Shown here: piece by piece, positions 3,648 through 31,024 of the stretch | How the letters are laid out: each line of letters begins with the position of its first letter | How positions within the stretch are numbered: the first letter of the stretch is position 1 | Assembly (NCBI GenBank): GCA_963674755.2 | Contig: CAXXVS010000003.1 | Location: 320,001 to 384,000, forward strand | Reading direction: 5' to 3' | DNA length: 64,000 nucleotides | DNA from: Desulfobacterales bacterium | Lineage (GTDB): Bacteria > Desulfobacterota > Desulfobacteria > Desulfobacterales > UBA5852 | Made by a program: the position numbers and the translations under genes | Notes under the pieces: generated by a model | Seen by the model: the letters and a program-made list of their open reading frames with translations, nothing else | Told to the model about the DNA's origin: nothing | Databases searched by the model: none

Positions 3648-4709
3648 ATGGATATCACCATAACCAAGGCCGAATCACTGAAAGCCAAACCGGACGCCGA
3701 TCGTCTGGGATTCGGTGCCCTTTTCACGGATCATATGTTCAATATGGATTACGATCCACAGCAGGGATGGCACAACCCGCGCATCGAGCCTTACGGACCG
3801 ATCGCAATGGATCCTTCGACGACGGTCCTCCATTACGGTCAGGAGGTTTTCGAGGGCCTCAAAGCCTATCGCACCGCTTCAGGCGCCATTCAGCTGTTTC
3901 GCCCCCAGGAGAATTTCAAGCGCATGAACCGCTCCTGCCAGCTGCTGTGCATCCCCCAATTCGATCCGGATTTTCTTCTGGCAGCCCTGAAAAAATTGCT
4001 GCGCCTCGAACAGGAGTGGGTACCCAAGGCGCCCGAGACGTCCCTGTACATCCGCCCCACGATCGTGGCCATGGATCCCTATCTGGGGGTGCGGGCCTCC
4101 CAAACCTATCGCTTCTTCATTATCCTTTCGCCCGTGGGTGCCTATTACCCGGAGGGTTTCAACCCGGTCAAGATCCAGGTTACCCGGGACCACGTGCGCG
4201 CGGTGCGCGGAGGGATCGGTGAAGCCAAAACATCGGGTAATTACGCCGCCAGCCTGCTGGCGGGCGACAGGGCCCACGAAGAGGGCTACACCCAGGTGCT
4301 CTGGCTGGACGGGGTCGAGCAGAAATATATCGAAGAGGTGGGCTCCATGAACATTTTCTTCGTGATCGGTGACGAGCTGGCCACGCCGGCCCTCAACGGC
4401 AGCATCCTGCCGGGAATTACCCGCGATTCGGTGCTGGCCCTGGGACGCAAATGGGGCCTCAAGGTTGCCGAGCGCAAGATCAGCATCGACGAGGTGATCG
4501 CCGCGCACGCCGACGGCCGGTTGAAGGAAATTTTCGGCTCGGGCACGGCGGCCGTCATTTCACCGGTGGGCGAGTTGAACTACGATGGCCGCAGCTTCGA
4601 GGTGAGCGGCGGCCAGGTAGGGCCCTTGGCCCATAAATTTTACGAAGCGATCACGAACATCCAGTATGGCACCGGGGAGGATATTATGGGGTGGGTCGAA
4701 CCTGTCTGA
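3648..4709 (+). CDS. ilvE: Branched-chain amino acid aminotransferase
   Basis: FTDHM, LHYGQEVFEGLKAY, LYIRP, K-x-x-GNY, EEVGSMN, ILPGITR, GTAAVISP; RBS AAGGAGG. Confidence 0.96.
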   Translation: MDITITKAESLKAKPDADRLGFGALFTDHMFNMDYDPQQGWHNPRIEPYGPIAMDPSTTVLHYGQEVFEGLKAYRTASGAIQLFRPQENFKRMNRSCQLLCIPQFDPDFLLAALKKLLRLEQEWVPKAPETSLYIRPTIVAMDPYLGVRASQTYRFFIILSPVGAYYPEGFNPVKIQVTRDHVRAVRGGIGEAKTSGNYAASLLAGDRAHEEGYTQVLWLDGVEQKYIEEVGSMNIFFVIGDELATPALNGSILPGITRDSVLALGRKWGLKVAERKISIDEVIAAHADGRLKEIFGSGTAAVISPVGELNYDGRSFEVSGGQVGPLAHKFYEAITNIQYGTGEDIMGWVEPV

Positions 4710-4775: not shown

Positions 4776-6170
4776 GTGACGCAGCACATGAACCAGCACA
4801 GCGAGGACCATCTACAGGCATTTAAAACCAAAATGGTGGCCGCCGGGCTCGCCCCCATGGTGATCGAGACCTTCGCGGCCTACTACGGCCAACTGGTGAA
4901 CGGCGCAACCGGCATCATCGCGGATGACGCCATACGCCCCCCGAGGAACGGCGAGGTCGTCGAGGCAGCGTCTCTCGCGGCCTACCGGTCCACCGGCCAG
5001 GCCGCCTTTAACCAGGCGGTGCGGATTACCCTCAACGGGGGGCTGGGCACCAGCATGGGCCTTATGGGGCCCAAATCCCTGCTGACGGTCAAAGACCGTA
5101 AATCCTTTCTGGAAATCATTCTGGGGCAGTCGGCGCGCCTGAAGATCAAACAGGTCCTGATGAACAGCTTCAGCACCCAAGCGGCCACCGAACAGGCCCT
5201 CCGTGCGCTAGCCCCGTCCGAAGCACCACTGATGTTTACCCAGAACTGCTTCCCCAAGATCCTGCGGGAGAATCTGGCGCCGGCCGCCTGGCCGCCCAAC
5301 CCCGAACTGGAATGGAACCCGCCCGGACACGGTGATATCTACACCGCCATGACCACCTCCGGGATTTTGGACCGCTTGCTGGAAGAGGACATCCGCTATG
5401 CCCTGATCTGTAATTCCGACAACCTGGGCGCCACCATGGATGATGCGCTTTTAGGCTATTTTGCCCACCATGAACTGCCGTTCCTCATGGAGGTGGCCCG
5501 GCGCACGCCCTCGGATGCCAAGGGGGGCCACCTGGCGGTGGACCGCAGCGGTGGACTGATCCTGCGGGAATCCGCCCAGTTTCCGCCCAACAGTCAGGGC
5601 CAGGACATCGACGTCTATCGCTTTTTCAACACCAACAACCTCTGGGTGAATCTGAAGGCCCTCAAAACGCTGATCCGCCGCGAAACAACCCTGCGGCTGC
5701 CCCTGATCGTCAATCCCAAAACCCTCGACCCCCGTGACGATGACAGCCCGGGCGTCTACCAGCTCGAATCGGCCATGGGGGCTGCCATCGGGTTGTTTGA
5801 CGGAGCCCGGGCCGTTCAAGTGCCCCGGACCCGCTTTTTTCCGGTCAAGACCTGCAATGACCTGCTGGCAGTGCGCTCGGACGCCTATCGGCTCAACGCC
5901 AATCTGGTATTGGAACCCAATCCCGAGCTGACGCATGCCGGTCCTCAAATTTCCCTGGATTCACGATATTACAGTAACATTGATATGTTTGATGAACGTT
6001 TTCCCGAAGGGTCCCCCTCACTGGTGCATTGCCGCCATCTGCGCGTCGACGGCGACGTCCTTTTCGAGAAAGACATTTGCATCGCGGGGGATGTCACCAT
6101 CACGAATTCCCGGGGTGCTCAAACAGTCGTAAAAGCCGGCACCACGATCGATCAGGACTTGCAACTTTAA
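4776..6170 (+). CDS. UTP--glucose-1-phosphate uridylyltransferase, eukaryote-type (UDPGP family, not GalU)
   Basis: LNGGLGTSMGLMGPKS, LMNSFST, WNPPGHGD, NSDNLGA, KGGHL, FNTNNLW, QLESAMG, RFFPVKT and a C-terminal beta-helix region. Confidence 0.9.
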   Translation: MTQHMNQHSEDHLQAFKTKMVAAGLAPMVIETFAAYYGQLVNGATGIIADDAIRPPRNGEVVEAASLAAYRSTGQAAFNQAVRITLNGGLGTSMGLMGPKSLLTVKDRKSFLEIILGQSARLKIKQVLMNSFSTQAATEQALRALAPSEAPLMFTQNCFPKILRENLAPAAWPPNPELEWNPPGHGDIYTAMTTSGILDRLLEEDIRYALICNSDNLGATMDDALLGYFAHHELPFLMEVARRTPSDAKGGHLAVDRSGGLILRESAQFPPNSQGQDIDVYRFFNTNNLWVNLKALKTLIRRETTLRLPLIVNPKTLDPRDDDSPGVYQLESAMGAAIGLFDGARAVQVPRTRFFPVKTCNDLLAVRSDAYRLNANLVLEPNPELTHAGPQISLDSRYYSNIDMFDERFPEGSPSLVHCRHLRVDGDVLFEKDICIAGDVTITNSRGAQTVVKAGTTIDQDLQL

Positions 6171-6325
6171 ATCCCGGCGCTAGTATTCGTCTTAATGGCG
6201 TGTCATCCGACGGCGGCGATCGAGGATTCCGACGCCTCTTTTCCGTTGAGCGTGAGGGATACCGTCCGGGGACGCCATAGGGTCGATGACCACCAGATTG
6301 AGAAACGCTCGACGGGACAACGATC

Positions 6326-7657
6326 ATGCCATCTGATATGCAAGCCGGACCCAAAAATATCGGCTTTGTGGCGACGCGCTTTGCCGGAACCGACGGCGTA
6401 TCGCTGGAGGCCGCCAAATGGGCCGAGGTGTTGAGCGAAAAGGGGCATCGTTGTTTCTGGTTTGGCGGCGAGCTGGACCGGCCGGCCGCGGTCAGCGAAC
6501 TGGTACCCGAAGCGCATTTCCAGACCGAACGCAACCAGGAGATCATGCAAGCGGTCTTCGGCCACAAGGCCCGCCCCCCGGCCATTACCGATGCCATTCA
6601 TGAATTGCGCCACTACCTGCGCAGCCGCCTGCATGGCTTTATCCGGCGGTTCGACCTGGACATGCTGGTTGTTCAGAACGCCCTGACCATTCCCATGCAG
6701 ATCCCCCTCGGTCTGGCCCTCTCCGAGGTTATCGCCGAAACCCTGATCCCCACCATTGCCCACCACCATGATTTTTACTGGGAGCGGGTGCGCTTCGCGG
6801 TGAATGCGGTGGGCGACTATCTGCGCATGGCGTTTCCACCGCGGCTCAATAACATCGAACATGTGGTCATCAACTCCACCGCCCAGGAGGAGCTGGCCCA
6901 CCGCAAGGGACTCTCATCGGTCATCATTCCCAACGTCCTTAATTTTGCCCACCCGCCGAATTCGCATCTTCCCTCGGACAATGACCTGCGGGCCGGCATC
7001 GGATTGAGCGACGACGATATCATGATCCTGCAACCCACCCGTGTCGTCCAGCGCAAGGGGATCGAACACGCCATCGAACTGGTCAAGGAACTGGACGATC
7101 CCCGCTGCAAACTCGTCATATCCCATGCGGCCGGCGACGAGGGCCTGGAGTATGCGGAGTGGCTGCAGGAAGACGCCCATAAAATGGGCGTCGATCTGCG
7201 TTTTCTGGAAGCCCCGGATAGAGCCACCCATCTGCCGCAACACGACGATTTTCGCCATCTCTCCCTCTGGGATATTTATCCCCATGCCGACTTCATCACC
7301 TATCCCAGCCTCTATGAGGGGTTCGGCAATGCCTTTCTGGAGGCGGTCTATTTCAAGAAGCCCCTGCTCATCAACCGCTATGCCATCTTCGTCAAGGACA
7401 TCGAGCCCCAGGGGTTCGACATGGTCGTCATGGACGGTTTTCTCACCCGCCACAATGTCCAGGCGGTGCGGGAGGTGCTGGCCTCGCCGGAGCGGCGCGC
7501 GCAAATGGTGAACCACAACTACCGGGTGGCGGCGCGCCACTATTCCTATGGTATTCTGCGTGAACGTCTGGGCAGTCTCATGCTGAACTTTTTCGGTATG
7601 GAAAACGGAGCCCTTGATCCCCCGAAGGAACGCTCTTTACAGCGTTGCGGAAAATAG
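6326..7657 (+). CDS. Glycosyltransferase family 4 (mannosylglucosylglycerate synthase-like)
   Basis: GTDGVSLEAAKW N-terminus, AHHHDFYWER, QPTRVVQRKGIE, YPSLYEGFGNAFLEA. Confidence 0.8.
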   Translation: MPSDMQAGPKNIGFVATRFAGTDGVSLEAAKWAEVLSEKGHRCFWFGGELDRPAAVSELVPEAHFQTERNQEIMQAVFGHKARPPAITDAIHELRHYLRSRLHGFIRRFDLDMLVVQNALTIPMQIPLGLALSEVIAETLIPTIAHHHDFYWERVRFAVNAVGDYLRMAFPPRLNNIEHVVINSTAQEELAHRKGLSSVIIPNVLNFAHPPNSHLPSDNDLRAGIGLSDDDIMILQPTRVVQRKGIEHAIELVKELDDPRCKLVISHAAGDEGLEYAEWLQEDAHKMGVDLRFLEAPDRATHLPQHDDFRHLSLWDIYPHADFITYPSLYEGFGNAFLEAVYFKKPLLINRYAIFVKDIEPQGFDMVVMDGFLTRHNVQAVREVLASPERRAQMVNHNYRVAARHYSYGILRERLGSLMLNFFGMENGALDPPKERSLQRCGK

Positions 7658-7660
7658 ACG

Positions 7661-10600
7661 ATGCCGGTCAACCTCCAACAAATTCCCGATCCGGACCAAC
7701 GGCTGTTGCTGAGCCGGGGGGATACGGTGACCTTTACCCTGCGCCTGCCCCGTCCGTTGAAGGGACAGGCCTGGCTGCGCGCGAACATCGGCCATGCGGC
7801 CACCATCCGCCAGGAAATCATCCGCCAGGCCGAACGGGATGAAAACCCGCTGGGGCGCGACTGGTACGACCGCCCCATGTCGCCCGTAAACGATGTGGAA
7901 TTCCGCATCGTGGTGCCGCTTCAGCAGGTGGGCCATTTCGAAGCCAAATGTTATTTTCTGGAAGATGGCGGGCATCCCCCCCTCTGGCCCCGGGGCGGCA
8001 ACACCATCGTCAATGTCGAGCCGGCCACCAGCTGTGCGGCCAACATTATTTACAATGCCTTTGTGCGGCAGTTCGGGCCCAATCGGGACGGCCGGGTCGG
8101 CCCGGAGTGGGCCTGTGAGGCCGTCAACGAACTGGATCACAAGCAGTTCACCGTCATTCCCCCTTCGGGCACCTTTCGCGACCTGATCGAGCACCTGGAT
8201 TTTATCATCGGGGAGCTGGGATGCACCATTATCCAACTCCTGCCGATTCACCCGACCCCCACCACCTACGCCCGCATGGGGCGTTTCGGAAGCCCCTATG
8301 CCGCCTTGAGCTTTCTGGATGTGGATCCCGCCCTGGCCCGTTTCGATCCGGCCGCCACCCCCCTGGAACAATTCGGCGAACTGGTGGATGCCGTCCACGC
8401 CCGCGGAGCCCGGATTTTTCTGGATATCGCCATCAATCACACCGGCTGGGCGGCCCGCCTGCACGGCATGCATCCGGAATGGCTGGCCCGGGACGACGGG
8501 GGCCGCATCGAAGTCCCCGGTGCCTGGGGGGTCGAATGGGCGGACCTGACGCGCCTCGATTACGCCCACCGGGACTTGTGGCGCTTCATGGCCAACATGT
8601 TTCTGACCTGGTGCCGCCGGGGAGTGGACGGTTTCCGCTGTGATGCCGGCTACATGATTCCGGAACCGGCCTGGCGCTACATGGTGGCCAAGGTGCGCCG
8701 CCAATTTCCGGATACGATTTTTCTGCTGGAGGGCCTGGGCGGCAAGATATCCGTCACCCGCGCCCTGCTCAATCGGGCCAACTTCAACTGGGCCTACTCG
8801 GAATTGTTCCAGAATTACGACCGCGGCCAGATCGAGTCCTACCTCCCGGGGGCGCTCGACATCGCGTGCACCGACGGATTGACGGTCAACTTTGCCGAAA
8901 CCCACGACAACCTGCGGCTGGCCGCCCGCTCCCAGGAGTGGGCCCGTCTGCGCACGGCCCTGTGCGCCCTGTTTGCCCCCCAGGGCGCCTTTGGGTTTGC
9001 CAACGGCGTGGAATGGTTTGCCACGGAAAAAATCAACGTGCACGACTCGCCCTCGCTCAATTGGGGGGCTGTTCCGAACCAGGTGGCGGTCATTCGCCGT
9101 TTGTCGGATCTGCTCAAACACCACCCCTGTTTCCACGATCAGACCCGGTTGCAATTGATTCAGGCCGACGGGGGCAATGTGGCGGTCATGCTGCGCCACC
9201 ATCAGCCCACACATCAACGTCTGCTGGTGGTGGTCAACCTGGACGACAAGACCCCGGCCACGGCCAGTTGGCTGTCGGAGGCCGCCCCTGAAATGCCTTC
9301 GGAATTGACGGATCTTCTTTCGGGCCGCTCCCTGACGCCCCTTCGGCAGGATGGTTATGTGCGCTGCGACCTGGCGCCCGGGGAGGTATTGTGCCTGGCA
9401 CCCTCTGAAACCGGCTTCACGCCTCCGGAACCGGAGACCGGGGCCTTGATGGCCGCCGTTCCAAGGGTTGAACAGCAACGCCGAAGGGCCAAGGTGCTGG
9501 ATCTGGTAATGCATTGGAACGGCGGCCGATGCGATGGACTGGATATCGACGCTTTAGCGGAAGAGCTGGCGGCGGACCCCCTGGCCCTCTGCCGCCGCCT
9601 GGGCAACGCTGGAAGCGATCCGGGTGTCACCCGCTGGCAATGGCCGCAGGATCTCCATCGGCAGGTCATGATTCCTCCCGGGCACGTGCTGCTGGTGGAG
9701 GCCCCCCACCCTTTTCAGGCGCGCATCGTGCTGAATCGCCGGGTGATCGGCCAGGAAACCTCGCTGGCAGGCCGCGACGCGGGGCATTTTGCCTTCTTTA
9801 CCCTGGGCGAAACGCCCTCGAATACGGTTACCGTGGGGTTGGAACTTTTTCTCTACACGCCCGAAGCCACCGAGCGCTCCCTTACGGACATGCTCCTGCT
9901 GACCGCCGCGGAAAGTATGTCTGTGCGCACCTTATGGCCCCGTCAGGGCCTGCCCGACGCCCCGTTGGTTTGGCTGGGCACCAACGGCCGCGGCGCCATG
10001 AGCCACACCCCGGTCCGCTGGGGTGTTCTTTACAGCCGCTACGATGCCCTGCTGGCCGCCAATCTGAACCCCGAAGTGCCCGAGGACCGCTGGATCATGC
10101 TGACCCGTCTGCGCGCCTGGGTCGTGTTCCAGGGCTACTCCCAGGAAATCCGCCATGACTGTCTGGAATCGTTTCATTACGACGGGCAAAACCGGGCCCG
10201 CTGGCGATTTCACATGCCCACGGGGCAGGGGCAATCCATCCGCCTCACTGTTTCGATCGACATGCCGGAGGCGGCCAATGCCGTCCGGATCGCTTTTGTG
10301 AGGGAGCCGGCCGGTCAGGTGCCCAACGGCCTGCCAGACGATCTGCCGGTTCACCTGATCCTGCGTCCCGATATCGAGGACCGCAATTTTCACGCTACCA
10401 CCAAGGCCTACCTTGGACCTGAAACCGGGTTTCCCGCGGCGGTGACACCCCGGGCCGACGGATTCATCTTTCGGCCGGATTCCGAGCGGCAGCTGCAGCT
10501 GAGCACCACCCTGGGGCATTATGTCCATGAGCCGGAATGGACCTATATGGTCCACCGCCCGCTGGAGGAGGAAAGGGGGCTCGATGCGGCCTCAGACCTA

Positions 10601-11941
10601 TTCAGCCCGGGATACATCACCGCCCCTTTGTCCGGGGGCGCCCGGCAGATTCTCCGGGCCTCCGTTAACGGCCACGACGGGGCCGCCGCCGATAAAGGCG
10701 AGCGTCAGGCCGGCCTTTTGGAAAAATATCGCGATACCGAGTTGGCCCTGCGGCAAGCCATGTCGCAGTTTATCGTCCAGAGAGGATCATTCGCCACGGT
10801 CATCGCCGGTTATCCCTGGTTTCTGGACTGGGGGCGGGATACTTTGATCTTTTGCCGGGGGATGATCGCCGCCGGTATGACCGAAACCGCGGTCAACATC
10901 ATCCGTCAGTTTGCCGCTTTCGAGCAGGACGGCACCCTGCCGAATATGATCCGCGGCAACGACGCCAGTGACCGGGATACATCGGATGCCCCTTTATGGC
11001 TCTTCGTCGTCTGCCGGGACCTGATCCGGAAGGGTCATACCGATATCCTCGATATGCCCTGCGGCGAACGACCCCTCCGGAAGGTCTTGGCCGACCTGGC
11101 CGGGGCCCTGGTTCGGGGTACGCCCAACGGAATTGTCATGGACCATGAATCCGCGCTCCTTTTCAGCCCGGCCCATTTTACCTGGATGGACACGAACTAT
11201 CCGGCCGGTACGCCGCGGGAGGGCTACCCCATCGAAATTCAGGCCTTATGGTTCGCCGCGCTGGATTTCCTGGCGGAATACGGGGACCCGTCCGGCAGGA
11301 CGGAATGGCGCCGGCGGGCCGCGCAGGTTGAAGCCTCCATCAACCGGCTGTATTTTAATGATGACTTGGGGTATCTAGTGGATTGCTTACACGGTCCGAC
11401 CGGCCGGCCGGCTAGGGCCTGCCAGGCCGACGATGCCCTGCGACCCAACCAGCTTTTTGCGATTACCTTGGGGGCCGTTCACGATCCGGCCAAGACCGGG
11501 CGTATCGTTGCGGCGTGCGAGGCATTGATTGTGCCGGGCGCTATCCGCAGCCTGGCCGATCGGCCGGTCAAGATCCCGCTGGCCATCCACCATCAGGGGC
11601 ATCTCTTGAACGATCCCCATCGCCCCTACCAGGGCCGCTACCAGGGGGATGAGGACACCCGGCGCAAGCCCGCCTACCACAACGGTACCGCGTGGACATG
11701 GGTCTTCCCTTCCTTTTGCGAAGCGTGGGATATGGTTCACGGCGCAAGCAGGCGGGCAGCCTGTCGGGCGCTCCTGGCGACATCGGCGGCCTACATGAAT
11801 GGCGGTTGCCTGGGGCATATACCGGAAATCGTGGATGGCAGCAGCCCCCACCAGCCACGGGGCTGCGACGCCCAGGCCTGGTCGGTGAGCGAAGTCTACC
11901 GGGTGTGGCGGCGCTTGAATCACGATGCGGAAGGCGCCTGA
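7661..11941 (+). CDS. Bifunctional GH13 alpha-amylase/glucanotransferase + amylo-alpha-1,6-glucosidase (GH133) glycogen debranching-like enzyme
   Basis: N-terminal GH13 motifs (QLLPIHP, GSPYA, INHTG, GFRCDAG, LLEGL, ETHDN); C-terminal GDE_C motifs (IAGYPWFLDWGRDT, TWMD, RPNQ, YHNGTAWTW, QAWS). Confidence 0.88.
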   Translation: MPVNLQQIPDPDQRLLLSRGDTVTFTLRLPRPLKGQAWLRANIGHAATIRQEIIRQAERDENPLGRDWYDRPMSPVNDVEFRIVVPLQQVGHFEAKCYFLEDGGHPPLWPRGGNTIVNVEPATSCAANIIYNAFVRQFGPNRDGRVGPEWACEAVNELDHKQFTVIPPSGTFRDLIEHLDFIIGELGCTIIQLLPIHPTPTTYARMGRFGSPYAALSFLDVDPALARFDPAATPLEQFGELVDAVHARGARIFLDIAINHTGWAARLHGMHPEWLARDDGGRIEVPGAWGVEWADLTRLDYAHRDLWRFMANMFLTWCRRGVDGFRCDAGYMIPEPAWRYMVAKVRRQFPDTIFLLEGLGGKISVTRALLNRANFNWAYSELFQNYDRGQIESYLPGALDIACTDGLTVNFAETHDNLRLAARSQEWARLRTALCALFAPQGAFGFANGVEWFATEKINVHDSPSLNWGAVPNQVAVIRRLSDLLKHHPCFHDQTRLQLIQADGGNVAVMLRHHQPTHQRLLVVVNLDDKTPATASWLSEAAPEMPSELTDLLSGRSLTPLRQDGYVRCDLAPGEVLCLAPSETGFTPPEPETGALMAAVPRVEQQRRRAKVLDLVMHWNGGRCDGLDIDALAEELAADPLALCRRLGNAGSDPGVTRWQWPQDLHRQVMIPPGHVLLVEAPHPFQARIVLNRRVIGQETSLAGRDAGHFAFFTLGETPSNTVTVGLELFLYTPEATERSLTDMLLLTAAESMSVRTLWPRQGLPDAPLVWLGTNGRGAMSHTPVRWGVLYSRYDALLAANLNPEVPEDRWIMLTRLRAWVVFQGYSQEIRHDCLESFHYDGQNRARWRFHMPTGQGQSIRLTVSIDMPEAANAVRIAFVREPAGQVPNGLPDDLPVHLILRPDIEDRNFHATTKAYLGPETGFPAAVTPRADGFIFRPDSERQLQLSTTLGHYVHEPEWTYMVHRPLEEERGLDAASDLFSPGYITAPLSGGARQILRASVNGHDGAAADKGERQAGLLEKYRDTELALRQAMSQFIVQRGSFATVIAGYPWFLDWGRDTLIFCRGMIAAGMTETAVNIIRQFAAFEQDGTLPNMIRGNDASDRDTSDAPLWLFVVCRDLIRKGHTDILDMPCGERPLRKVLADLAGALVRGTPNGIVMDHESALLFSPAHFTWMDTNYPAGTPREGYPIEIQALWFAALDFLAEYGDPSGRTEWRRRAAQVEASINRLYFNDDLGYLVDCLHGPTGRPARACQADDALRPNQLFAITLGAVHDPAKTGRIVAACEALIVPGAIRSLADRPVKIPLAIHHQGHLLNDPHRPYQGRYQGDEDTRRKPAYHNGTAWTWVFPSFCEAWDMVHGASRRAACRALLATSAAYMNGGCLGHIPEIVDGSSPHQPRGCDAQAWSVSEVYRVWRRLNHDAEGA

Positions 11942-12024
11942 CGGCGACCGATAGCGGTCAACTTAGAAATTGAAAAACCCGCCCCCCCGGGGCGGCATAC
12001 ATATTCTTTAACGGAGACGAGTTC

Positions 12025-14571
12025 ATGCGCAACATTCAGACTTTTCAGGTGTTTCCCTTTATTCCCGAATCCCTGGCGTTCCTGGAAACCTTGACCCGGA
12101 ACCTGTGGTGGTGCTGGCAGCGGGACGCTTTCGAGCTGTTTCGCCGTATCCACCCCGGCCTGTGGCATCAATGCCAGGGCAACCCCATCCTGTTTTTTAC
12201 CCGCATCCCCCAGGAACGCCTGCAGGAACTCGCCCGGGACAAAAGCTTCATCGCCCACATGGAGCGGGTGCGCCTCCATTTCGAGTCCCAGGTCATGAGT
12301 CCGCCCTCCGAAGACGGGCCCTTTGCGCCCGAGGCGACGATCGGCTATTTTTCAATGGAATTCGGCATGCACGAAAGCGTGCCCCTTTATTCCGGCGGCC
12401 TCGGCATTCTGGCGGGCGACCACCTCAAAGCGGCTTCTGATTTGAGGCTGCCCCTGGTGGGTATCGGGCTATTTTACCGACAGGGATACTTCCGGCAGTT
12501 TTTAAACGACGATGGCTGGCAGCAGGAGACCTACCCCGAGAACGACATTTTTATGCTACCCATCGAAAGGGCCCGAACCCCCGAAGGCCAGGAAATCCTA
12601 GTGCAAGTGGACAGCCCTGACGGCCCCCTTCACGCCATGGCCTGGGAAATTCGCGTCGGCCGCATTCCCCTTTATCTGCTGGACACCAATGTTCGCGAAA
12701 ACCCCCCGGCCCTGCGGGACATCACCGCCCGGCTCTATTCGGGCGGCAGCCGGCGGCGCCTGGCCCAGGAAATCGTTCTGGGAATTGGCGGCATGCGGGT
12801 TTTGGAAAAGCTGAATCGCAATCCCCAGGTGGTTCACATGAACGAGGGACACTCGGCTTTTGCCAGTCTGGAGCGGCTCTCCCAGCTGGTGCAGTCCGAA
12901 GGTCTGGATTTGAAGACCGCCACCCAGGTGTTACCGCGCACCACCGTGTTCACTACCCACACCCCGGTGGCGGCGGGCCACGATGATTTTCCAGTGGATA
13001 TGGTCATGCCCTGCCTGAAACCTTTCGAGGAAAAACTCGGTACCCATGTGGCCGCCATCGTTCGATGGGGTCAGCCCCAGGGCGGTTCTCCCGAGACACC
13101 GCTTTCCATGTTTATTTTGGGCAAGCGCATGTCAGCCTACTGCAACGGCGTCAGTGAGCTGCACGGGGCCGTCGCCCGGCGGATGTGGCACCATCTCTGG
13201 CCCGGGATTCCCGAGGACGAGGTCCCTATCACCCACGTCACCAACGGGGTTCACATTCCCACCTGGACCTCCTCGGAAACCAGCCTGCTGTTCGAACGCT
13301 ATATCGGACCGGACTGGCACTTGGCGGTCGGGACCTCCGACAACGGTCACCGCCTGGAAGAAATGTACGACGAGGAGCTCTGGCACGCCCACGAAATCAA
13401 CCGCGCCCGTCTCATCCGAACCTGCCGACGCCGCATGGCGGACCAATACGGTCGGCGCAACGCCCCCATTACGATTATGAAGGAGATGGAGTCTGTTCTG
13501 GACCAGGACATTTTGACCATTGCCTTTGCCCGCCGGTTTGCCACTTACAAGCGGGCCAATCTTCTGCTGCAAGACCCTGATCGGTTGGAGGCCATGATCA
13601 ATTCGGAGGACCATCCCGTGCAGTTTATCTTTGCCGGCAAGGCCCATCCCCAGGACAACGAAGGCAAGGAATTGATCCGGCGCCTGGTGGAGTTCGGGCG
13701 GCGTCCCGGCATCCGGCACCGATTTATCTTTCTTGAAGACTATGACATGCAGGTCGCCCGGCGGTTTATCCAGGGGGCCGATGTCTGGCTGAACACCCCC
13801 CGCCGGCCGTTTGAAGCCTGCGGCACCTCCGGCATGAAAGCGGCCATCAACGGCGTCCTCAACGTCAGCGTTCTCGACGGGTGGTGGTGTGAAGGCTACC
13901 GGGATGACCGGGGCTGGCGTATCGGCAACGGTGAGGAATTCGAGGATGCCGACTACCAGGACCGCATCGAGGGCCAAGCCCTCTACAATGTTTTGGAAAA
14001 CGAGGTGATCCCCTGTTTTTACGATCGTGAAGCCGGTGGTCTGCCCCTGCGCTGGCTGGCCCGCATGAAGGCCTCCATGAAAATGGCCATGCAGGATTTC
14101 AGCGCCCAGCGCATGGTCAACCAATACAGCACACGCTTCTACACGCAGGCGGTACAACACTATCACGACCTCCTGGCCGATCAGGCCCGGCTGGCCGTGC
14201 AGAAAAGCCAAACCAACGAGCGCCTGACGAAGCTATGGAAGGAAATCGTCATCGATTTCCCGGTGTTGCAAACCGAGGGGACCCTGCGGGTGGGCGACCG
14301 GCTCCAGATCAACGTACTTGTCAATCTGGGTCAGATCAAGCCCGACGAAGTCGATGTGGAACTCTGCTATGGCCCACCCAAAACCGTGGACCGCTTGGAG
14401 GAAACCTATCGCAAAACCATGACCGTTCAGGAGACGCTCAGCGAAAACCGCTATCTTTACAGCTGCTCCCTGCCATGCGATGCAGCCGGTCGCTACGGGT
14501 TTACCGCACGGGTGACACCGAAGGGCGATATCTGGACACGCTATACCCCGGGACTGATCGCCTGGGCCTGA
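12025..14571 (+). CDS. glgP: Alpha-glucan (glycogen) phosphorylase
   Basis: YFSMEFG, YSGGLGILAGDHLK, HMNEGH, TNGVH, ARRFATYKRA, EACGTSGMKA (PLP lysine). Confidence 0.96.
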   Translation: MRNIQTFQVFPFIPESLAFLETLTRNLWWCWQRDAFELFRRIHPGLWHQCQGNPILFFTRIPQERLQELARDKSFIAHMERVRLHFESQVMSPPSEDGPFAPEATIGYFSMEFGMHESVPLYSGGLGILAGDHLKAASDLRLPLVGIGLFYRQGYFRQFLNDDGWQQETYPENDIFMLPIERARTPEGQEILVQVDSPDGPLHAMAWEIRVGRIPLYLLDTNVRENPPALRDITARLYSGGSRRRLAQEIVLGIGGMRVLEKLNRNPQVVHMNEGHSAFASLERLSQLVQSEGLDLKTATQVLPRTTVFTTHTPVAAGHDDFPVDMVMPCLKPFEEKLGTHVAAIVRWGQPQGGSPETPLSMFILGKRMSAYCNGVSELHGAVARRMWHHLWPGIPEDEVPITHVTNGVHIPTWTSSETSLLFERYIGPDWHLAVGTSDNGHRLEEMYDEELWHAHEINRARLIRTCRRRMADQYGRRNAPITIMKEMESVLDQDILTIAFARRFATYKRANLLLQDPDRLEAMINSEDHPVQFIFAGKAHPQDNEGKELIRRLVEFGRRPGIRHRFIFLEDYDMQVARRFIQGADVWLNTPRRPFEACGTSGMKAAINGVLNVSVLDGWWCEGYRDDRGWRIGNGEEFEDADYQDRIEGQALYNVLENEVIPCFYDREAGGLPLRWLARMKASMKMAMQDFSAQRMVNQYSTRFYTQAVQHYHDLLADQARLAVQKSQTNERLTKLWKEIVIDFPVLQTEGTLRVGDRLQINVLVNLGQIKPDEVDVELCYGPPKTVDRLEETYRKTMTVQETLSENRYLYSCSLPCDAAGRYGFTARVTPKGDIWTRYTPGLIAWA

Positions 14572-14675
14572 TGGATGAGGACGATTCGCGGCGGACCGCT
14601 TATTGAATCGGGGGTGATAGCCCCACCAAAGCCCTCGGGATCGGGGAAGGAGGAGGCCCCCAAAGGGAGATTTTT

Positions 14676-16199
14676 ATGCCAACGCCTTTAAGCAACCCCA
14701 CCGTATTGGTGGTAACCCCTGAAGTCACCTATCTGCCGGAAGGTATGGGCAACATGTCCAACCACCTGACGGCCAAAGCCGGCGGCCTGGCCGATGTATC
14801 CGCCGCTCTGATCAGTGCGTTATTCGACCAGGGCGCCGATGTGCACGTCGCCCTGCCGGACTATCGCGAAATTTTTGCCGCCCAGACGGCGCCGCTTTTA
14901 AAAAACGAATTTCGGCGCATTCGCGACAAGATGCCGGATGAACGCATCCATTTAGCCGAAGACCGCGCCTTTTTCTACATGAACACGGTCTATTCCCATT
15001 ATGGGGCGGATAACATCAAAATCGCCCTGGCGTTCCAGCGCGAAATTATCAACAACATCATGCCCCGCGTCAAACCGGACTTGATCCATTGCAATGACTG
15101 GATGACCGGTCTAATTCCGGCCGCCGCACGGGAAATGGGCATCCCCTGCCTGTTTACCGTTCATAATATCCATACCGTCAAGGCCTTGCTGGCCTACATC
15201 GAAGACCGCGGTGTCGACGCGGCCTATTTCTGGCACCACCTCTACTACGAGAACATGGCAATGGAATATGAGGAAACCCGGGATACCAATCCTGTGGATT
15301 TCCTGGTGAGCGGCATCTTCGGCGCCCATTTCGTGAATACGGTCAGTCCCACCTTTCTCAGGGAAATCGTGGATGGCCATCACCATTTTGTTGCGCCTCA
15401 TATTCGGCAGGAACTGGCCAATAAATACTATGCCGAATGCGCCACCGGGATTCTCAACGCCCCCGATCCATCTTATCGCCCCGAGACGGACGACGCCCTA
15501 GCGCAACCCTATTCCGCCAAGGATCACGCCCGCGGCAAACAAGCCAACAAGCGCTATCTGCAGCGCAGTCTAGGCCTCGTGCCGGACGACCGGGCACCGC
15601 TTTTTTTCTGGCCCCATCGCCTGGACCCGGTGCAGAAGGGCTGTCAGCTGCTGGCCGACATTCTCTACCGGGTGGTATCCCAATACTGGGATCAGCACCT
15701 GCAGATCGTTTTTGTGGCCAATGGCGACTACAAGAACATCTTCCATAATATCGTGGCCTTCCACGAACTTTACGACCGGGTGGCCGTCTGTGGGTTTGAC
15801 GAAACACTGGCCCGGGTGGCCTATGCCGCTTCCGACTTCATGCTGATGCCGTCACGCTTCGAGCCCTGCGGACTGCCCCAGATGATCGGGCCCCTTTACG
15901 GCTGTCTGCCCGTAGCCCACGATACCGGCGGAATTCATGACACCGTCGCCCATCTGTCGCCGGAAACGGATTCGGGCAACGGCTTCCTTTTCGAAACCTA
16001 CGACAGCCCTGGACTTTTCTGGGCCATGGAGCAAGCCATGCTTTTCCATGAATTGCCGGAAGAAACACGGCGTCGACAAATCCAACGCATCATGGAGGAA
16101 AGCGTCAAGACGTTCAATCACGACGTCACCGCTCGTCATTACATGCAGCTTTATGAAAAAATGCTGCATCGCCCCCTGATCGCCGAACGACCCTATTAA
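14676..16199 (+). CDS. glgA: Glycogen/starch synthase (GT5)
   Basis: KAGGLADV, HCNDW, FTVHN, NTVSPT, QKG, PSRFEPCGLPQM, TGGIHDTV. Confidence 0.9.
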   Translation: MPTPLSNPTVLVVTPEVTYLPEGMGNMSNHLTAKAGGLADVSAALISALFDQGADVHVALPDYREIFAAQTAPLLKNEFRRIRDKMPDERIHLAEDRAFFYMNTVYSHYGADNIKIALAFQREIINNIMPRVKPDLIHCNDWMTGLIPAAAREMGIPCLFTVHNIHTVKALLAYIEDRGVDAAYFWHHLYYENMAMEYEETRDTNPVDFLVSGIFGAHFVNTVSPTFLREIVDGHHHFVAPHIRQELANKYYAECATGILNAPDPSYRPETDDALAQPYSAKDHARGKQANKRYLQRSLGLVPDDRAPLFFWPHRLDPVQKGCQLLADILYRVVSQYWDQHLQIVFVANGDYKNIFHNIVAFHELYDRVAVCGFDETLARVAYAASDFMLMPSRFEPCGLPQMIGPLYGCLPVAHDTGGIHDTVAHLSPETDSGNGFLFETYDSPGLFWAMEQAMLFHELPEETRRRQIQRIMEESVKTFNHDVTARHYMQLYEKMLHRPLIAERPY

Positions 16200-16208
16200 G
16201 GTGCGCCC

Positions 16209-18248
16209 ATGAGCTCAGGACAATCCAGCGATGCCCCCATCTGGCTGAACCGCCTGCTTGCGAAAGATCCCTGGCTGGCGCCTTTTCGCGAAGGATTGGT
16301 CCGGCGGCGGCAAACCATGGAATCCGCCCGCGACAGACTTCTGGCCGACGGTGACCCCTTGCAGGAGGTGGCTCGCGACCATCACTATTTCGGCCTTCAT
16401 GCGGAAGCCGACGGGTGGGTTTTCCGGGAATGGGCCCCCAATGCCACAGCAGTCTTTCTGTTGGGGACGTTTAATGCCTGGGAGGAAAACCCGTCTTTTG
16501 CCCTCCAGCGCACGACGGCGCGGAACGGGGTCTGGGAACTTCGTCTGGCCAGGGATCAAATCGCGCACGGGGATTTGTATCGATTGCGCCTCTATTGGCC
16601 GGACGGCCAGGGGGAGCGGCTGCCAGTCTACGCCCGTCGGGTGGTCCAGGATCCCCATACCCATATCTTCAACGCTCAGGTCTGGTACCCGCCGGAACCC
16701 TATCGCTGGAACCATGCCGCACCGGCGGCGCCGGATCCGATCCTGATCTACGAAACCCATGTGGGCATGGCCCAGGAAAAACACGGTGTCGGCACCTACC
16801 GGGAATTTGCCGACCTTTTGGTGCCCCGCATCAAACGCTCCGGCTACAACACCATCCAGTTGATGGCGGTCCAGGAGCATCCCTATTATGGGTCCTTCGG
16901 CTACCAGGTGTCCAATTTTTTTGCGGCCTCCTCGCGCTTCGGCACACCGGAAGATCTCAAATACCTGGTGGACGCGGCCCATGGGGCCGGTCTGCGGGTG
17001 GTCATGGACATCGTCCATTCCCATGCCGTTTCCAACGAGGTGGAGGGCCTGAGCCGATTTGACGGAACGCTCCACCAGTACTTTCACGACGGGCCGCGGG
17101 GCCATCATGCCGCCTGGGATTCCCGCTGCTTTGACTACCACAAGGTCGAGGTGCTGCGCTTTTTGCTGTCCAACTGCCGCTTTTGGCTGGAAGAATATCG
17201 TTTTGACGGCTTCCGCTTCGACGGCATCACCAGCATGCTCTACCTGGATCACGGGCTGGGAAAAGCCTTTACCAGCTATAACGATTATTTCAGCGGGAAC
17301 GTGGATGAGGATGCCGTGGCCTACCTGACCCTGGCCAACGAGGTGGTCCAGGCCGTCAATCCCCAGGCCGTTACCATTGCCGAGGACATCAGCGGTCTGC
17401 CGGGGCTGGCCCTGCCCATCGACCAGGGAGGGGTCGGCTTCGATTACCGCTTTGCCATGGGGATCGCCGATCAGTGGATCCGGCTGACCAAGGAGGTGCC
17501 CGATGAGAACTGGCAGATCGGCAGCATCTGGCACGAACTGACCAACCGCCGGGCCCATGAAAAGTCCATCAGCTACGCCGAATGCCACGACCAGGCCCTG
17601 GTGGGGGATAAAGCCCTCATGTTCCGCCTGGCCGATGCCGCCATGTACGATCACATGCACCGGGACGATCCGGACCTGACCATGGACCGGGCCGTGGCCC
17701 TGCATAAGATGATTCGCCTGATCACCCTAGCCACGGCCGGCAACGGTTACCTGACCTTCATGGGCAATGAATTCGGCCATCCCGAATGGATCGACTTTCC
17801 CCGGGAGGGCAACAACTGGTCCTACCACTATGCCCGCCGTCAATGGCACCTGGCGGACCATCCGGATTTGAAATACGGTCTGCTGGCCGCCTTTGACCGG
17901 GCGATGCTGGAACTGGTGAAGACCCGCGCGCTCTTCCAGGATCCCTGGGCGCATCTGGTATACGAACACAACGACGACAAGATTCTGACCTTCGCCCGCC
18001 ACGACCTGCTCTTCGTTTTCGGCTTTCACCCCACCCAATCGTTCAGCGACTACAGCTTCCCCACAACTCCGGGAAAATACCGGCTGATATTCGACAGTGA
18101 TCGGCCGGCGTTCGGCGGCCATGGTCGCCTGCGATCCGACCAGGAACACCTTACCCTCCCGGAGGCCCAGGATCCCTCAGGGACCCGGTACCGGCTGCAA
18201 CTCTATATCCCCAACCGCACCGCCCAGGTGCTGCTGAAGGTGGATTGA
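16209..18248 (+). CDS. glgB: 1,4-alpha-glucan branching enzyme (GBE1/GH13_8-like)
   Basis: FREWAPNA, SFGYQVSNFFAASSRFGTPEDLK, WDSRCFDY, GFRFDGITSMLY, HDQALVGDK, FMGNEFGHPEWIDFPREGN. Confidence 0.93.
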   Translation: MSSGQSSDAPIWLNRLLAKDPWLAPFREGLVRRRQTMESARDRLLADGDPLQEVARDHHYFGLHAEADGWVFREWAPNATAVFLLGTFNAWEENPSFALQRTTARNGVWELRLARDQIAHGDLYRLRLYWPDGQGERLPVYARRVVQDPHTHIFNAQVWYPPEPYRWNHAAPAAPDPILIYETHVGMAQEKHGVGTYREFADLLVPRIKRSGYNTIQLMAVQEHPYYGSFGYQVSNFFAASSRFGTPEDLKYLVDAAHGAGLRVVMDIVHSHAVSNEVEGLSRFDGTLHQYFHDGPRGHHAAWDSRCFDYHKVEVLRFLLSNCRFWLEEYRFDGFRFDGITSMLYLDHGLGKAFTSYNDYFSGNVDEDAVAYLTLANEVVQAVNPQAVTIAEDISGLPGLALPIDQGGVGFDYRFAMGIADQWIRLTKEVPDENWQIGSIWHELTNRRAHEKSISYAECHDQALVGDKALMFRLADAAMYDHMHRDDPDLTMDRAVALHKMIRLITLATAGNGYLTFMGNEFGHPEWIDFPREGNNWSYHYARRQWHLADHPDLKYGLLAAFDRAMLELVKTRALFQDPWAHLVYEHNDDKILTFARHDLLFVFGFHPTQSFSDYSFPTTPGKYRLIFDSDRPAFGGHGRLRSDQEHLTLPEAQDPSGTRYRLQLYIPNRTAQVLLKVD

Positions 18249-21047: not shown

Positions 21048-22946
21048 TTAATGCACTTCTTCAAATTCAGCGTCCACGACATCCTCATGGGATTTCCGGG
21101 AAGGCCCGGCAGACGCCGTTTCCCCGGTTCCCGCACCGCCAGCCCCCTGGCTGTAGGCCGTGGACCCCATCTGCTGGGCGATGCGTTTGAGATCCTCGCT
21201 CAGGCGGCGGATCTCGGCCACGTCATCCCCCTGCATGGCGGTCTTTAAAGCCTGGACCGCGTTGCTGACCTGGGTCCGGGAACTCTCGTCCAACCGGCCC
21301 TGCAACTCCTGCAGGCTTTTTTCGGTGGTGTAGACCAGGGCATCCGCCTCGTTGCGGGCGTCCACGAGCCCTTTCTTGCGGCGGTCCTCATCGGCATGCA
21401 TTTCCGCTTCCCGCACCAGGCGGTCGACATCGTCCTTATTCAGACCGCTGGAAGCCGTGATGCGGATAGACTGCTCCTTGCCGGTGGCCTGATCCTTGGC
21501 CGAAACACTGACAATGCCGTTGGCGTCGATGTCGAAAGAGACCTCGATCTGGGGCATGCCCCGGGGGGCCGGTGCGATCCCGGTCAGTTCGAAGCGGCCG
21601 AGGGTCTTGTTGTCCGAGGCCATCTCCCGCTCACCCTGCAGAACATGCACCGTTACGGCCGGCTGGTTGTCTTCCGCGGTGGAAAACACCTGGCTCTGAC
21701 GGGCCGGAATGGTGGTGTTGCGTTCGATCAGCCGCGTCATGACACCGCCTAGGGTTTCGATGCCCAGGGACAGCGGGGTCACATCCAGCAGCAGCACGTC
21801 CTTGATGTCACCTTTCAGGACGGCTCCCTGGATAGCGGCCCCCATGGCCACCACTTCGTCCGGATTGACACCCTTGCCGGGCTCGCGGCCGAAAATTGCC
21901 TTCACGCGCGCCTGGACAGCCGGCATACGAGTCATACCGCCCACCAGAATGACGTCGTCGATCTCGCCTGAAGAAAGACCTGCATCCTTCATGGCCTGAC
22001 GGCATGGTCCTTCCAGCCTGTTCAGCAATTCGGCCACCAGTGCTTCCAGTTTGGCCCGGGACAGCTTGATGTTCATGTGTTTGGGACCACCGGCATCGGC
22101 CGTGATAAAGGGCAGATTGATCTCCGTTTCCATCGAAGAGGAAAGTTCCATCTTGGCCTTTTCGGCAGCTTCTTTGAGCCGCTGCAAGGCCATCTTGTCG
22201 GAACGCACATCGATGCCCTGATCCTTGCGGAAGGTGTCCGCCAGATAGTCGATCAGACGCAGGTCGAAATCCTCGCCCCCCAGATGGGTGTCGCCGTTGG
22301 TGGCCTTGACTTCGAACACCCCGTCCCCGATTTCCAGGATGGAGATGTCAAAGGTGCCGCCGCCAAGATCGAACACCGCGATTTTTTTATCTTTTTTTCC
22401 TTCCAAGCCATAGGCCAGGGAGGCGGCCGTAGGCTCGTTGATGATGCGCAGGACGTTCAGACCGGCGATTTTACCGGCGTCCTTGGTGGCCTGGCGCTGA
22501 CTGTCGTCGAAATAGGCCGGCACGGTGATGACCGCGTCGGTGACCTTTTCCCCGAGGTAGTCCTCCGCCGCCTTGCGTATGGTGCTCAAAATAAAGGACG
22601 AAATCTCCGCCGGACTGTAAGCCTTATCTTTGAGACGGACGCGCACGTCGCCGTTTTCGGCTGCCTCGATCCGATAGGGCAATACCGGAACGTCCCGCTG
22701 GACCTCGGCTGAAGTATATTTTCGTCCGATCAGCCGTTTGACACCGAAAACCGTATTTTCCGGATTGGTAACGGCCTGGCGTTTGGCAATCTGACCCACA
22801 AGGCGCTCACCCGCGTCGTTGACAGCCACGATGGAAGGCGTGGTACGGCCCCCCTCGCTGTTGGTGATCACCTTGGTGTCTTTGTTCTCCATGATCGCGA
22901 CACAAGAATTGGTGGTGCCCAGATCAATTCCAATAACCTTACCCAT
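21048..22946 (-). CDS. dnaK: Molecular chaperone DnaK (Hsp70)
   Basis: [29 protein letters not shown], acidic C-terminus VVDAEFEEV. Confidence 0.98.
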
Positions 22947-30270: not shown

Positions 30271-30273
30271 ATC

Positions 30274-31010: not shown

Positions 31011-31024
31011 AAAGGATAGAATAG

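Follow-up and report, generated by a model that had tools for sequence, protein, structure and literature searches.

The locus described here raises the question of how a bacterium might make and degrade glycogen from one gene cluster that lacks glgC, and which sugar nucleotide would feed the synthase. The cluster lies in a stretch of 64,000 nucleotides from a Desulfobacterales bacterium (the window), where six open reading frames, all on the + strand, span positions 4776-18248. The gaps between them are 155, 3, 83, 104 and 9 bp, in agreement with the sequence-only reading, which had described six co-oriented genes with gaps of no more than about 155 bp, and their GC3 of 0.69-0.76 is of coding type. 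Pfam and profile searches assigned the genes as follows, together with the gene upstream.

3648..4709, + strand: ilvE-like class IV aminotransferase (PF01063), not a glycogen gene
4776..6170, + strand: UGPase, eukaryote-type (UDPGP, PF01704, 388 bits), 464 aa
6326..7657, + strand: GT4 glycosyltransferase, MggS-like (NF041101, 235 bits against a cut-off of 640), 443 aa
7661..11941, + strand: fusion of GH13 (Alpha-amylase), GDE_N and GDE_C (GH133) by Pfam, 1426 aa
12025..14571, + strand: alpha-glucan phosphorylase (GlgP), GT35, Thermococcales MalP-like (TIGR02094, 805 bits; NF041129, 748 bits, under its cut-off of 1500), 848 aa
14676..16199, + strand: GT5 glycogen synthase of a divergent clade (TIGR02095, 279 bits), 507 aa
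16209..18248, + strand: branching enzyme (CBM48-GH13), human GBE1/GH13_8 type, best match human GBE1, 679 aa

As that reading had also stated, the profile search places no GlgC, GlgX or MalQ among the six genes. Contigs from a second public run bridge positions 11164-13840 and 13981-16954 with seven differences each, and the junctions within these spans are therefore not an assembly artefact. The conserved core of the cluster is the fusion, GlgP, the GT5 and the GH13_8-type branching enzyme. We consider it reasonably probable that the cluster is an operon for glycogen synthesis and breakdown in a genome without glgC, with the divergent GT5 likely fed UDP-glucose by the neighbouring PF01704 enzyme and the fusion predicted to be a two-step debrancher. 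It is a variant of a known pathway, in a form not previously described.

The whole host genome (three contigs, 97.4% complete) was searched. glgC was not found, the best TIGR02091 score being 76.9 bits against a cut-off of 424.9 in a search whose controls responded, and further genome-wide searches gave no GH77/MalQ (PF02446), galU, GH57, GH65 or GH31. Only four PF00128 proteins were found: two belong to the cluster and the other two resemble sucrose phosphorylase. None of these is GlgX, and no TreS was seen among the four. The glgE marker PF11896 (GlgE_dom_N_S) had zero matches genome-wide, as had the GT3 synthase (PF05693), for which the Bacteroides control responded. The NTP-transferases score as RmlA (two), ManC, GlmU-like, MurU-like and one unassigned, HddC/ManC-like, none of them as GalU or GlgC, and the PF01704 gene is the sole recognisable UDP-glucose pyrophosphorylase. 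Three phosphorylases are encoded in the genome. A sucrose-phosphate-synthase-like gene and sucrose phosphorylase are located outside the cluster.

Against TIGR02095 the synthase reaches 279 bits, short of the cut-off of 328. Its best PDB match is E. coli GlgA (153 bits), with archaeal GT5 at only 56 bits, and in the tree it belongs to a separate clade with SH-like support of 1.0 and a stem of 1.54 substitutions per site, within which identity of about 60% is held across two phyla. Among the best 120 longer proteins most are unnamed, the named matches are bacterial fusions of about 30% identity, and no particular affinity to eukaryotic GT5-UDP synthases is apparent in these comparisons. The eukaryotic style ascribed to the pathway by the sequence-only reading probably does not extend to this enzyme, which appears to be of bacterial descent and is not a eukaryotic GT3. 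PF08323 and the catalytic set KxGG, H163, R315, K321 and E396 are present, and K34, G36, G37, D40, H163, N261, R315, K321 and E396 are invariant in 72/72 clade sequences. The aliphatic position of the adenine sandwich (Ile330 in AtSSIV; PMC6086201) is Pro in all 72, compared with V, I or T in 66/66 classical GlgAs, and 71/72 have Ala in place of the Gly in the LG[ST]G loop; the host residues are P313 and A348. Clade members also have extra residues ahead of K34 and in the R315-K321 interval, and retain the adenine-stacking aromatic F374, as well as K34 and D40. Judged from the alignment, the host GT5 has intact catalytic residues and a remodelled adenine pocket.

The occurrence of glgC follows the type of synthase. 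The clade is present in 50 of 141 Verrucomicrobiota genomes, and in this phylum glgC was found in 0/45 clade-only genomes, 5/5 with both synthases, 63/65 with the classical synthase only and 9/26 with neither. Of 41 genomes sampled from the order, 34 have the clade and two have glgC, in both cases within a glgC-glgA-pgm cassette with classical GlgA, while 0/31 clade-only Desulfobacterales genomes have it. Among further clade genomes glgC occurs in 1/16 (G052), which again has classical GlgA. Altogether, classical GlgA is present in 8/8 clade genomes with glgC, and a search of 76 genomes with this GT5 clade only found no glgC. The gene lies within 25/64 classical GT5 loci vs 0/32 clade loci. 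Because these genomes share kinship and are not independent, the co-occurrence table rests on roughly four to six events; the 18 fusion-bearing classical-only genomes, for instance, are one clade. Since glgC tracks classical GlgA and never the clade alone, it is very likely that the clade synthase works without GlgC, and the proposal of a GlgC-independent glycogen module is upheld in the host and across the clade-only genomes.

The remaining partners of the synthase differ in how closely they are tied to it. The branching enzyme matches human GBE1 (4BZY) with 679 bits, yeast Glc3 with 633 and plant SBE with 630, vs 193 for E. coli GlgB (1M7X), which confirms the GBE1 type originally proposed; it adjoins the GT5 in 32/39 Verrucomicrobiota loci and 14/16 loci of the order. 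GlgP adjoins the GT5 in 21/39 Verrucomicrobiota loci. The GT4, which had been counted as part of the module, is accessory and not needed for it: it is missing from the cluster in six relatives (G006, G007, G008, G009, G011 and G012), was not found in 40/40 Verrucomicrobiota clade genomes, and has two full-length paralogues of 50% identity elsewhere in the host genome.

The fusion consists of a GlgE/GH13_48-like GH13 module, approximately residues 1-584, followed by GDE_N (119 bits) and GDE_C (PF06202, 207 bits), the GH133 amylo-1,6-glucosidase. D328, E357, D416, D1177 and E1389 are invariant in 62/62 copies and in 48/48 Verrucomicrobiota copies. E1389 aligns with human E1502, and D1177, within an invariant WMD motif, presumably corresponds to human D1261. 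The fusion occurs in 48/50 clade genomes and in 18/65 classical-only genomes, 17 of the latter 18 having glgC, and its presence in both groups implies that it serves glycogen whatever the donor. It is highly probable that this protein is a debranching enzyme. The sequence-only reading had seen in it the eukaryotic bifunctional debrancher, with which it shares only the layout: the hGDE Pfam domains (hGDE_N, hGDE_amylase and hGDE_central) gave no match at E<=0.001, GDE_N is prokaryote-specific, and eukaryotic debranching enzymes match within the GH133 region. A precomputed PF14701 mark is found on 1 of 120 homologues. The fusion likely arose independently of the eukaryotic debrancher.

The main uncertainty about the fusion concerns its GH13 half, which could be a maltose-releasing exo-amylase like those of GH13_48, with GH133 cutting branches directly, so that the protein would be a tandem of hydrolases and not a eukaryotic-style indirect debrancher. 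By sequence, the PDB entries that score highest are two GH13_48 amylases, 3DHU at 102 bits and 4GKL at 70 bits, with GlgE 4U33 also matched. The AlphaFold model (pLDDT 82.9) gave two fold lists, both headed, among the families listed, by GlgE and GH13_48; 4GKL has the lowest rmsd of the best 12 matches, 2.7 A across 392 residues at Z 32.5. GH13_48 features are retained, namely C327 before the nucleophile, L299-D300 closing CSR-V, and D295 and H260, equivalent to Asp135 and His103, the pair which in GH13_48 caps the non-reducing end; CSR-VII ends in GV in 61/62 fusions, not GQ. An archaeal amylo-1,6-glucosidase, possibly a GH133 member, was reportedly able to cleave DP 13-24 chains directly (PMC9142091). 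Against this, a genome with no GlgX, MalQ, GH57, GH65 or GH31 found has no obvious route to recycle free maltose, and the full 1-584 module, N-terminal domain included, follows the transglycosylase GlgE, which is the best fold match (Z 33.8, rmsd 5.6, 505 residues aligned over model residues 1-583; Foldseek E 4.5e-29) and provides all nine highest matches. We therefore regard the hydrolase tandem as unlikely, though a serious alternative, and lean slightly towards a transferase.

We then return to the donor. The best PDB matches of the UGPase are the UTP-glucose-1-phosphate uridylyltransferases 3GUE (339 bits) and 2OEF (334 bits); UGPases score 231-339 bits vs 22 for USP, the NGGLG, PPGHGD, RESAQ, FNTNNLW and VKTC motifs align, and the nearest relatives are trypanosomatid UGPases. 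The eukaryotic type proposed for this gene therefore stands, but across relatives the module is not consistently linked to it. The gene lies next to the glycogen block in 15/17 genomes of the host's family, including those in which the GT4 (G006, G007, G008, G012) or both the GT4 and the fusion (G009, G011) are lost, and in 0/10 scorable genomes of other families and 0/39 Verrucomicrobiota GT5-clade loci. The co-oriented ilvE gene ends 66 bp upstream of the UGPase and, in most of the relatives inspected, directly precedes it (in G032 and G018, galU instead); in other families of the order the UGPase is at ilvE, apart from the block, in 10/11 genomes, the remaining one (G022) being at contig ends. 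A housekeeping gene, the UGPase has its anchor at ilvE throughout the order and may have become a neighbour of the four-gene core in a single event, in the host family's ancestor. Being confined to that family, the adjacency is weak evidence.

UDP-glucose is the probable donor in the host, on the indirect evidence of the glgC pattern and the pocket residues. The pocket is an unreliable guide, because in Cyanophora GBSS the adenine is displaced in the crystal and yet ADP-glucose is preferred in solution (PMC6086201). One alternative, which we think rather improbable, is that the GlgC-independent GT5 is promiscuous, with UDP-glucose as just one of its donors, or takes a different NDP-glucose (dTDP-, GDP- or any available). 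Archaeal GT5s are described as accepting ADP-, UDP- or GDP-glucose (PMC11046441), and the host has two RmlA. Moreover, neither GalU nor this UGPase is recognisable in 23/45 clade-only Verrucomicrobiota genomes, which have a weak PF01704 protein only (one examined matches UDP-GlcNAc pyrophosphorylases), nor in 4/34 clade genomes of the order (G021, G024, G031, G038). However, most of these genomes are fragmented assemblies, and the host does have a UGPase, adjacent to the cluster. UDP-glucose may also come from UAP-type enzymes or from a divergent GalU.

It is more doubtful still that the GT5 uses ADP-glucose, made by a GalT/HIT-type ADP-glucose phosphorylase or a reversed sucrose-type synthase. 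The host encodes a 348 aa GalT/HIT-like protein (G000:C1, L179:1027-2073), found in 27/33 clade genomes of the order, whose best PDB match is Arabidopsis 1Z84 (E 9e-4); the sucrose genes noted above and the retained F374, K34 and D40 would also fit. But the match is weak at 21 bits, E. coli GalT scores equally, the gene lies away from the cluster, such a protein occurs in 0/45 clade-only Verrucomicrobiota genomes (TIGR00209 in 3/78 clade genomes), and the adenine-pocket changes are fixed throughout the clade.

The absence of glgC would also be accounted for if the fusion were a true GlgE making glucan from maltose-1-phosphate. Its fold matches suggest this, as do many homologues automatically named "starch synthase (maltosyl-transferring)", but it is very improbable: PF11896 and TreS were not found, the phosphate-binding N371, Y376 and N414 (PMC4663749) become A288, W293 and A329 by a mapping inferred from motif spacing, the fusion accompanies classical GlgA in 18 genomes, and an intact GT5 is in the same operon. 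The chance that the GT5 is a relic, inactive or no longer needed, with phosphorylase and branching enzyme making glycogen alone, is slighter again, because despite the three phosphorylases and the existence of degenerate clade paralogues (one in the host genome) its catalytic residues are invariant, its identity is held across two phyla, and it adjoins the branching enzyme more often than GlgP.

On the preferred reading, glucose-1-phosphate and UTP would be converted by the UGPase to UDP-glucose, from which the GT5 would build alpha-1,4 chains for the GBE1-type enzyme to furnish with alpha-1,6 branches. In breakdown, the TIGR02094-type phosphorylase would trim chains until roughly three glucoses are left as a stub; the T. 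litoralis enzyme is described as needing chains of at least four (PMC11046441). The GlgE/GH13_48-like domain may then transfer a maltosyl unit onto another chain end and the GH133 domain free the last glucose of the branch, with the GT4 a probable passenger.

The host shares with E. coli glgBXCAP an operon that combines a GH13 branching enzyme, a GT35 phosphorylase and a synthase of GT5 fold whose catalytic residues are the same. It differs in having no GlgC, GlgX or MalQ in the cluster, in the divergence and pocket of its GT5, and in using a GBE1-type rather than GlgB-type branching enzyme and GH133 rather than isoamylase-type debranching. The Prevotella bryantii and wider Bacteroidota route likewise has no glgC, and there the UDP-glucose donor is shown, whereas in the host it is inferred. 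PMC7935935 describes its synthase as eukaryote-type, and PMC11046441 describes Bacteroidetes as carrying GT3, in contrast to the host GT5 and the lack of GT3 matches in the host genome. Bacteroides encodes an orthologue of GBE1 as well as a GDE_N-GDE_C protein (PMC4236520), but the host GH133 is fused to a GH13 module. Human AGL and Candida GDE (GH13_25-GH133) share with the fusion an N-terminal GH13 and a homologous C-terminal GH133 in one chain, and differ in their hGDE domains. With GlgE (GH13_3) and GH13_48 the 1-584 module shares fold, domain order, N-terminal beta-sandwich, catalytic triad and non-reducing-end Asp, at about 20% identity and with phosphate-binding residues apparently missing, no PF11896 and the altered CSR-VII; GH13_48 enzymes are mostly three-domain, whereas the fusion has an extra N-terminal domain and GH133. 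Use of UDP-glucose by GT5 enzymes has precedents in Chlamydia trachomatis and Aeromonas GlgA, archaeal GT5 and the eukaryotic GT5-UDP synthases, as described in PMC7935935, PMC11046441 and PMC6086201, although C. trachomatis and Aeromonas retain glgC and none was found in the host.

A 2021 paper describes just two cases in which GlgC is bypassed in the classical pathway, P. bryantii and C. trachomatis (PMC7935935). If our reading is true, the present system would be a third, widespread and GT5-based bypass, in 34/41 genomes of this sulfate-reducer order and 50/141 Verrucomicrobiota. Tentatively, and somewhat short of an even chance, this unrecognised GT5 subfamily may be the synthase, UDP-glucose-fed and GlgC-independent, that is standard in Desulfobacterales and in roughly one third of the Verrucomicrobiota, travelling with a bifunctional debrancher in which bacteria independently joined a prokaryotic GH133 to a GlgE-type maltosyltransferase, as a second, convergent origin of animal-style glycogen chemistry; a 2025 paper describes the bifunctional debranching enzyme as not conserved in bacteria (PMC12219210). 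The two or three fixed pocket residues offer a natural contrast for the question of ADP- vs UDP-glucose specificity in GT5. Genome surveys of glycogen capacity based on glgC would overlook these taxa, and pipelines that label the fusion as GlgE would misassign the pathway. In the organisms themselves, glycogen synthesis would, if the reading is true, escape the allosteric control that usually acts at GlgC.

All six open reading frames of the glycogen cluster proposed in the sequence-only reading are present as described, with intergenic gaps of 155, 3, 83, 104 and 9 bp. Pfam and NCBIfam assign them, in order, to UDPGP (the UGPase, PF01704), GT4, Alpha-amylase + GDE_N + GDE_C (the GH13+GH133 fusion, 1426 residues), TIGR02094 phosphorylase (GlgP), GT5 (the synthase) and CBM48-GH13 branching enzyme (GBE). 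Positions in the window are as follows.

4776 to 18248, forward strand: the six-gene glycogen cluster
14676 to 16199, forward strand: the GT5 synthase
306 to 1892: glycerol-kinase-like ORF, named from its translation, which we take to be ordinary
21048 to 22946: DnaK-like ORF, likewise named from its translation and presumably ordinary
30001 to 34000 and 42001 to 46000: GC content of 0.47–0.52, against about 0.59 around the cluster

The source genome is 6.7 Mb in 3 contigs and 97.4% complete, and the names borne by close homologues indicate Desulfobacterales. Searches of the whole of it, each with control genomes that responded, found no glgC, no GlgE N-domain and no GH77, and likewise no galU, GT3, GH57, GH65 or GH31. 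The GH13 proteins outside the cluster are all sucrose-phosphorylase-like, and the genome also carries 2 further phosphorylases, 2 full-length GT4 paralogues and 1 degenerate GT5 paralogue. We note that a sucrose-phosphate synthase/phosphatase-like fusion adjoins a sucrose phosphorylase gene (locus L108:2904-6805, contig C1), which suggests sucrose metabolism in this organism. A scan of the cluster for promoters and terminators gave no more sites than shuffled sequence (5 against 6.8; 22 against 16.1, sd 3.9), and one metatranscriptome yielded short low-depth contigs over the cluster, 14 at 99% or more, although such contigs cannot reveal transcription.

The synthase scores under the GlgA profile cut-off. 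Genome searches with it were bimodal, giving matches either of 48–96% identity or of about 30%. In a phylogeny of 139 GT5 sequences (taken from retrieved loci, with alignments of at least 380 residues and one duplicate locus omitted), a divergent clade of 73, which holds the cluster's synthase, stands apart from 66 classical GlgA-type sequences. SH-like support for this split is 1.0 when the tree is left unrooted, and its stem measures 1.54 substitutions per site; the groups were first split by BLAST score, with which the tree is concordant. All 72 intact clade members have K34, G36, G37, D40, H163, N261, R315, K321 and E396. Among genome contigs, a pattern scan kept 80 loci, at least 16 of them of the clade, with Akkermansiaceae, Luteolibacter, Lentisphaeria, Kiritimatiellia and Desulfobacterales/Thermodesulfobacteriota among the matches listed. 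Among remoter kin are Ca. Stygibacter, Syntrophaceae and GH57 fusions. P0128 and P0164 (903 residues) are GH57 joined to a wider-clade GT5, and the WPxRL and ADG motifs recur in relatives from Ca. Stygibacter and Syntrophaceae. The source genome has a second clade GT5 (contig C2, 1796824-1798533; L007:8825-10534) of 48% identity, which carries K34R, G36S, H163Y, N261Q and K321R and lies beside a protease gene and the genes of a two-component pair. Degenerate copies of this kind are many and together form a subclade; they are likely to be pseudoenzymes, perhaps with a regulatory role.

The distribution of glgC follows the type of synthase. In our sample of 41 Desulfobacterales genomes, 34 have a clade GT5 and only two have glgC, which in both stands in a cassette with classical glgA and pgm; a further clade genome (G021) has a classical-like GT5 and lacks glgC. 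None of the remaining 31 genomes, with a clade GT5 and no classical one (clade-only), has it. An even sample of 141 Verrucomicrobiota gave the same picture, with glgC in 0/45 clade-only genomes, 5/5 with both types, 63/65 classical-only and 9/26 with no GT5 match. Among 16 further clade genomes, one of which overlaps the 141, glgC was found in 1, which also has classical glgA. Most genomes in the survey are MAGs, those of Verrucomicrobiota without completeness figures. Used as a marker of lineage, 62 fusion proteins gave a tree that puts the 18 classical-only carriers in a single clade and the five genomes with both types in two groups. Related genomes do not count as independent observations, and the pattern represents approximately 4–6 events, all pointing in the same direction. 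We therefore consider it well supported that the clade synthase is independent of GlgC. The two Desulfobacterales cassettes (L008, G001:C3:2714000-2733999; L009, G032:C100) come from two families, their GlgAs are 78% identical, and they were likely gained laterally; that of G001 adjoins a second clade GT5 copy and a GBE.

The nucleotide pocket of the clade differs from that of classical enzymes. According to PMC6086201, the adenine is sandwiched by an aromatic residue and Val/Ile (Tyr390 and Ile330 of AtSSIV). By alignment the clade retains the aromatic (F374), and the Val/Ile position is Pro in 72/72 clade members against V/I/T in 66/66 classical ones. In the LG[ST]G loop, Ala stands in place of the Gly in 71/72; the spacing from aligned E16 to K34 is 17 residues in 70/72 instead of 5, and that from R315 to K321 is 5 instead of 4. 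These differences are compatible with an altered nucleotide preference, without naming the nucleotide; in Cyanophora GBSS a displaced adenine failed to predict solution kinetics (PMC6086201). A 66-residue pocket fragment had no match in the PDB.

The core of fusion, GlgP, GT5 and GBE recurs across families of the order, with GBE in 14/16 loci, GlgP in 14/16 and the fusion in 12/16; among 39 Verrucomicrobiota clade loci GBE is found in 32, GlgP in 21 and the fusion in 7. When the ORFs of 72 clade loci were all clustered, cluster size revealed no recurrent partner beyond these four genes, and the next-largest clusters resemble opposite-strand or short shadow ORFs. The linkage of the UGPase proved narrower than proposed. 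Across the order the UGPase lies downstream of ilvE, and in three such loci a lytic transglycosylase gene closely follows, the same gene that follows the glycogen block in the source genome. In G032 (L176) and G018 (L138) galU occupies the slot next to ilvE, an apparent in-place replacement of the PF01704 enzyme by a non-homologous one. The glycogen block sits in the ilvE/UGPase slot in 15 of the 17 genomes of the source family (11 seen in sequence and 4 by coordinates; the remaining 2 stop at a contig edge), where the link persists after loss of GT4 and even of the fusion, and in 0/10 scorable genomes of other families (G022 was unscored). UGPase, GT4 and glgC occur in none of the 39 Verrucomicrobiota loci.

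UDP-glucose is the likeliest candidate donor of the cluster's GT5. The main gap in this reading is that 23 of the 45 clade-only Verrucomicrobiota have no recognisable UDP-glucose pyrophosphorylase, with GalU in 20 and the cluster-type UGPase in 2. The 23 have, besides, only a weak PF01704 protein, of a sort that many Verrucomicrobiota carry; the one tested (L180:682-2022, G181) is like eukaryote-type UDP-GlcNAc pyrophosphorylase. ADP-glucose might instead come from a GalT-like phosphorylase, as a distant GalT/HIT-like protein of 348 residues (L179:1027-2073, contig C1), weakly similar to Arabidopsis 1Z84 and E. coli GalT, occurs in 27/33 clade genomes of the order. Against this route, the protein is found in 0/45 clade-only Verrucomicrobiota and its gene is unlinked to the cluster in the source genome. 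The genomes G018, G021, G031 and G038 lack both this protein and the PF01704 UGPase. GT4 as primer or donor-maker is ruled out by its absence from 40/40 Verrucomicrobiota clade genomes. GT4 itself had no match in the PDB, and nor has its MggS-like family, which reaches 7 matches in a single genome of the order; one paralogue (L111:566-7179, contig C2) follows iPGM, PGK and phosphohexomutase genes.

For the GH13 part of the fusion, the leading matches were two GH13_48 amylases, 3DHU and 4GKL, followed by GlgE and the Thermotoga maltosyltransferase; it was in the GH133 region that eukaryotic enzymes matched. A model of residues 1–760 from a 77-sequence alignment (pLDDT 82.9, pTM 0.88; the GH13 module without alignment gave pLDDT 37 and was discarded) superposed on GlgE over 1–583 (Z 33.8, rmsd 5.6, 505 aligned) and on 4GKL over 122–584 (Z 32.5, rmsd 2.7, 392 aligned). 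Eukaryotic debranching enzyme was not among the roughly 50 best matches listed in either fold search, which does not exclude it. GH13_48 marks (C327, L299-D300, D295, H260; PMC11239784) are retained, and the GlgE phosphate-binding trio (PMC4663749), mapped by motif spacing, is seemingly missing. Across two phyla neither active site varies, and the fusion occurs in 48/50 clade genomes and 18/65 classical-only genomes. Its domains, Alpha-amylase-GDE_N-GDE_C, differ from those of the eukaryotic indirect debrancher, of which it is likely an analogue and not an orthologue. We infer that it would debranch by maltosyl transfer first and then glucose release, which is favoured by the maltose-sized donor site, by a Thermococcales-type phosphorylase that would leave three-glucose stubs, and by the lack of a maltose-recycling enzyme in the genome. 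The literature search gave no confirmation of a GH13+GH133 protein of this kind from Akkermansia muciniphila in CAZy.

Each part of the module has precedent, and its proteins are already in databases under automatic names. Earlier work describes bacteria with GBE1 orthologues (PMC4236520). It also describes UDP-glucose-accepting GT5s from Chlamydia, from Aeromonas and from archaea, and in Prevotella a eukaryote-type synthase that works with UDP-glucose (PMC7935935, PMC11046441). Pontiella has glycogen-like granules (PMC7356697), but is annotated glgABCPX, so they are no proof for a clade-only organism. Our literature search, which covered few subscription journals or book chapters and took in main texts only (such proteins may be listed in the supplements of PMC11046441, PMC4236520, PMC7965971 and PMC11239784), found no study of the GT5 clade or of how glgC relates to it, and none on a GH133 fusion of the GlgE-like kind. 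The description of the pathway as eukaryote-style stands by homology for two enzymes and, for the debrancher, probably by convergence. The cluster is real, and its glycogen module is a variant of a known pathway.
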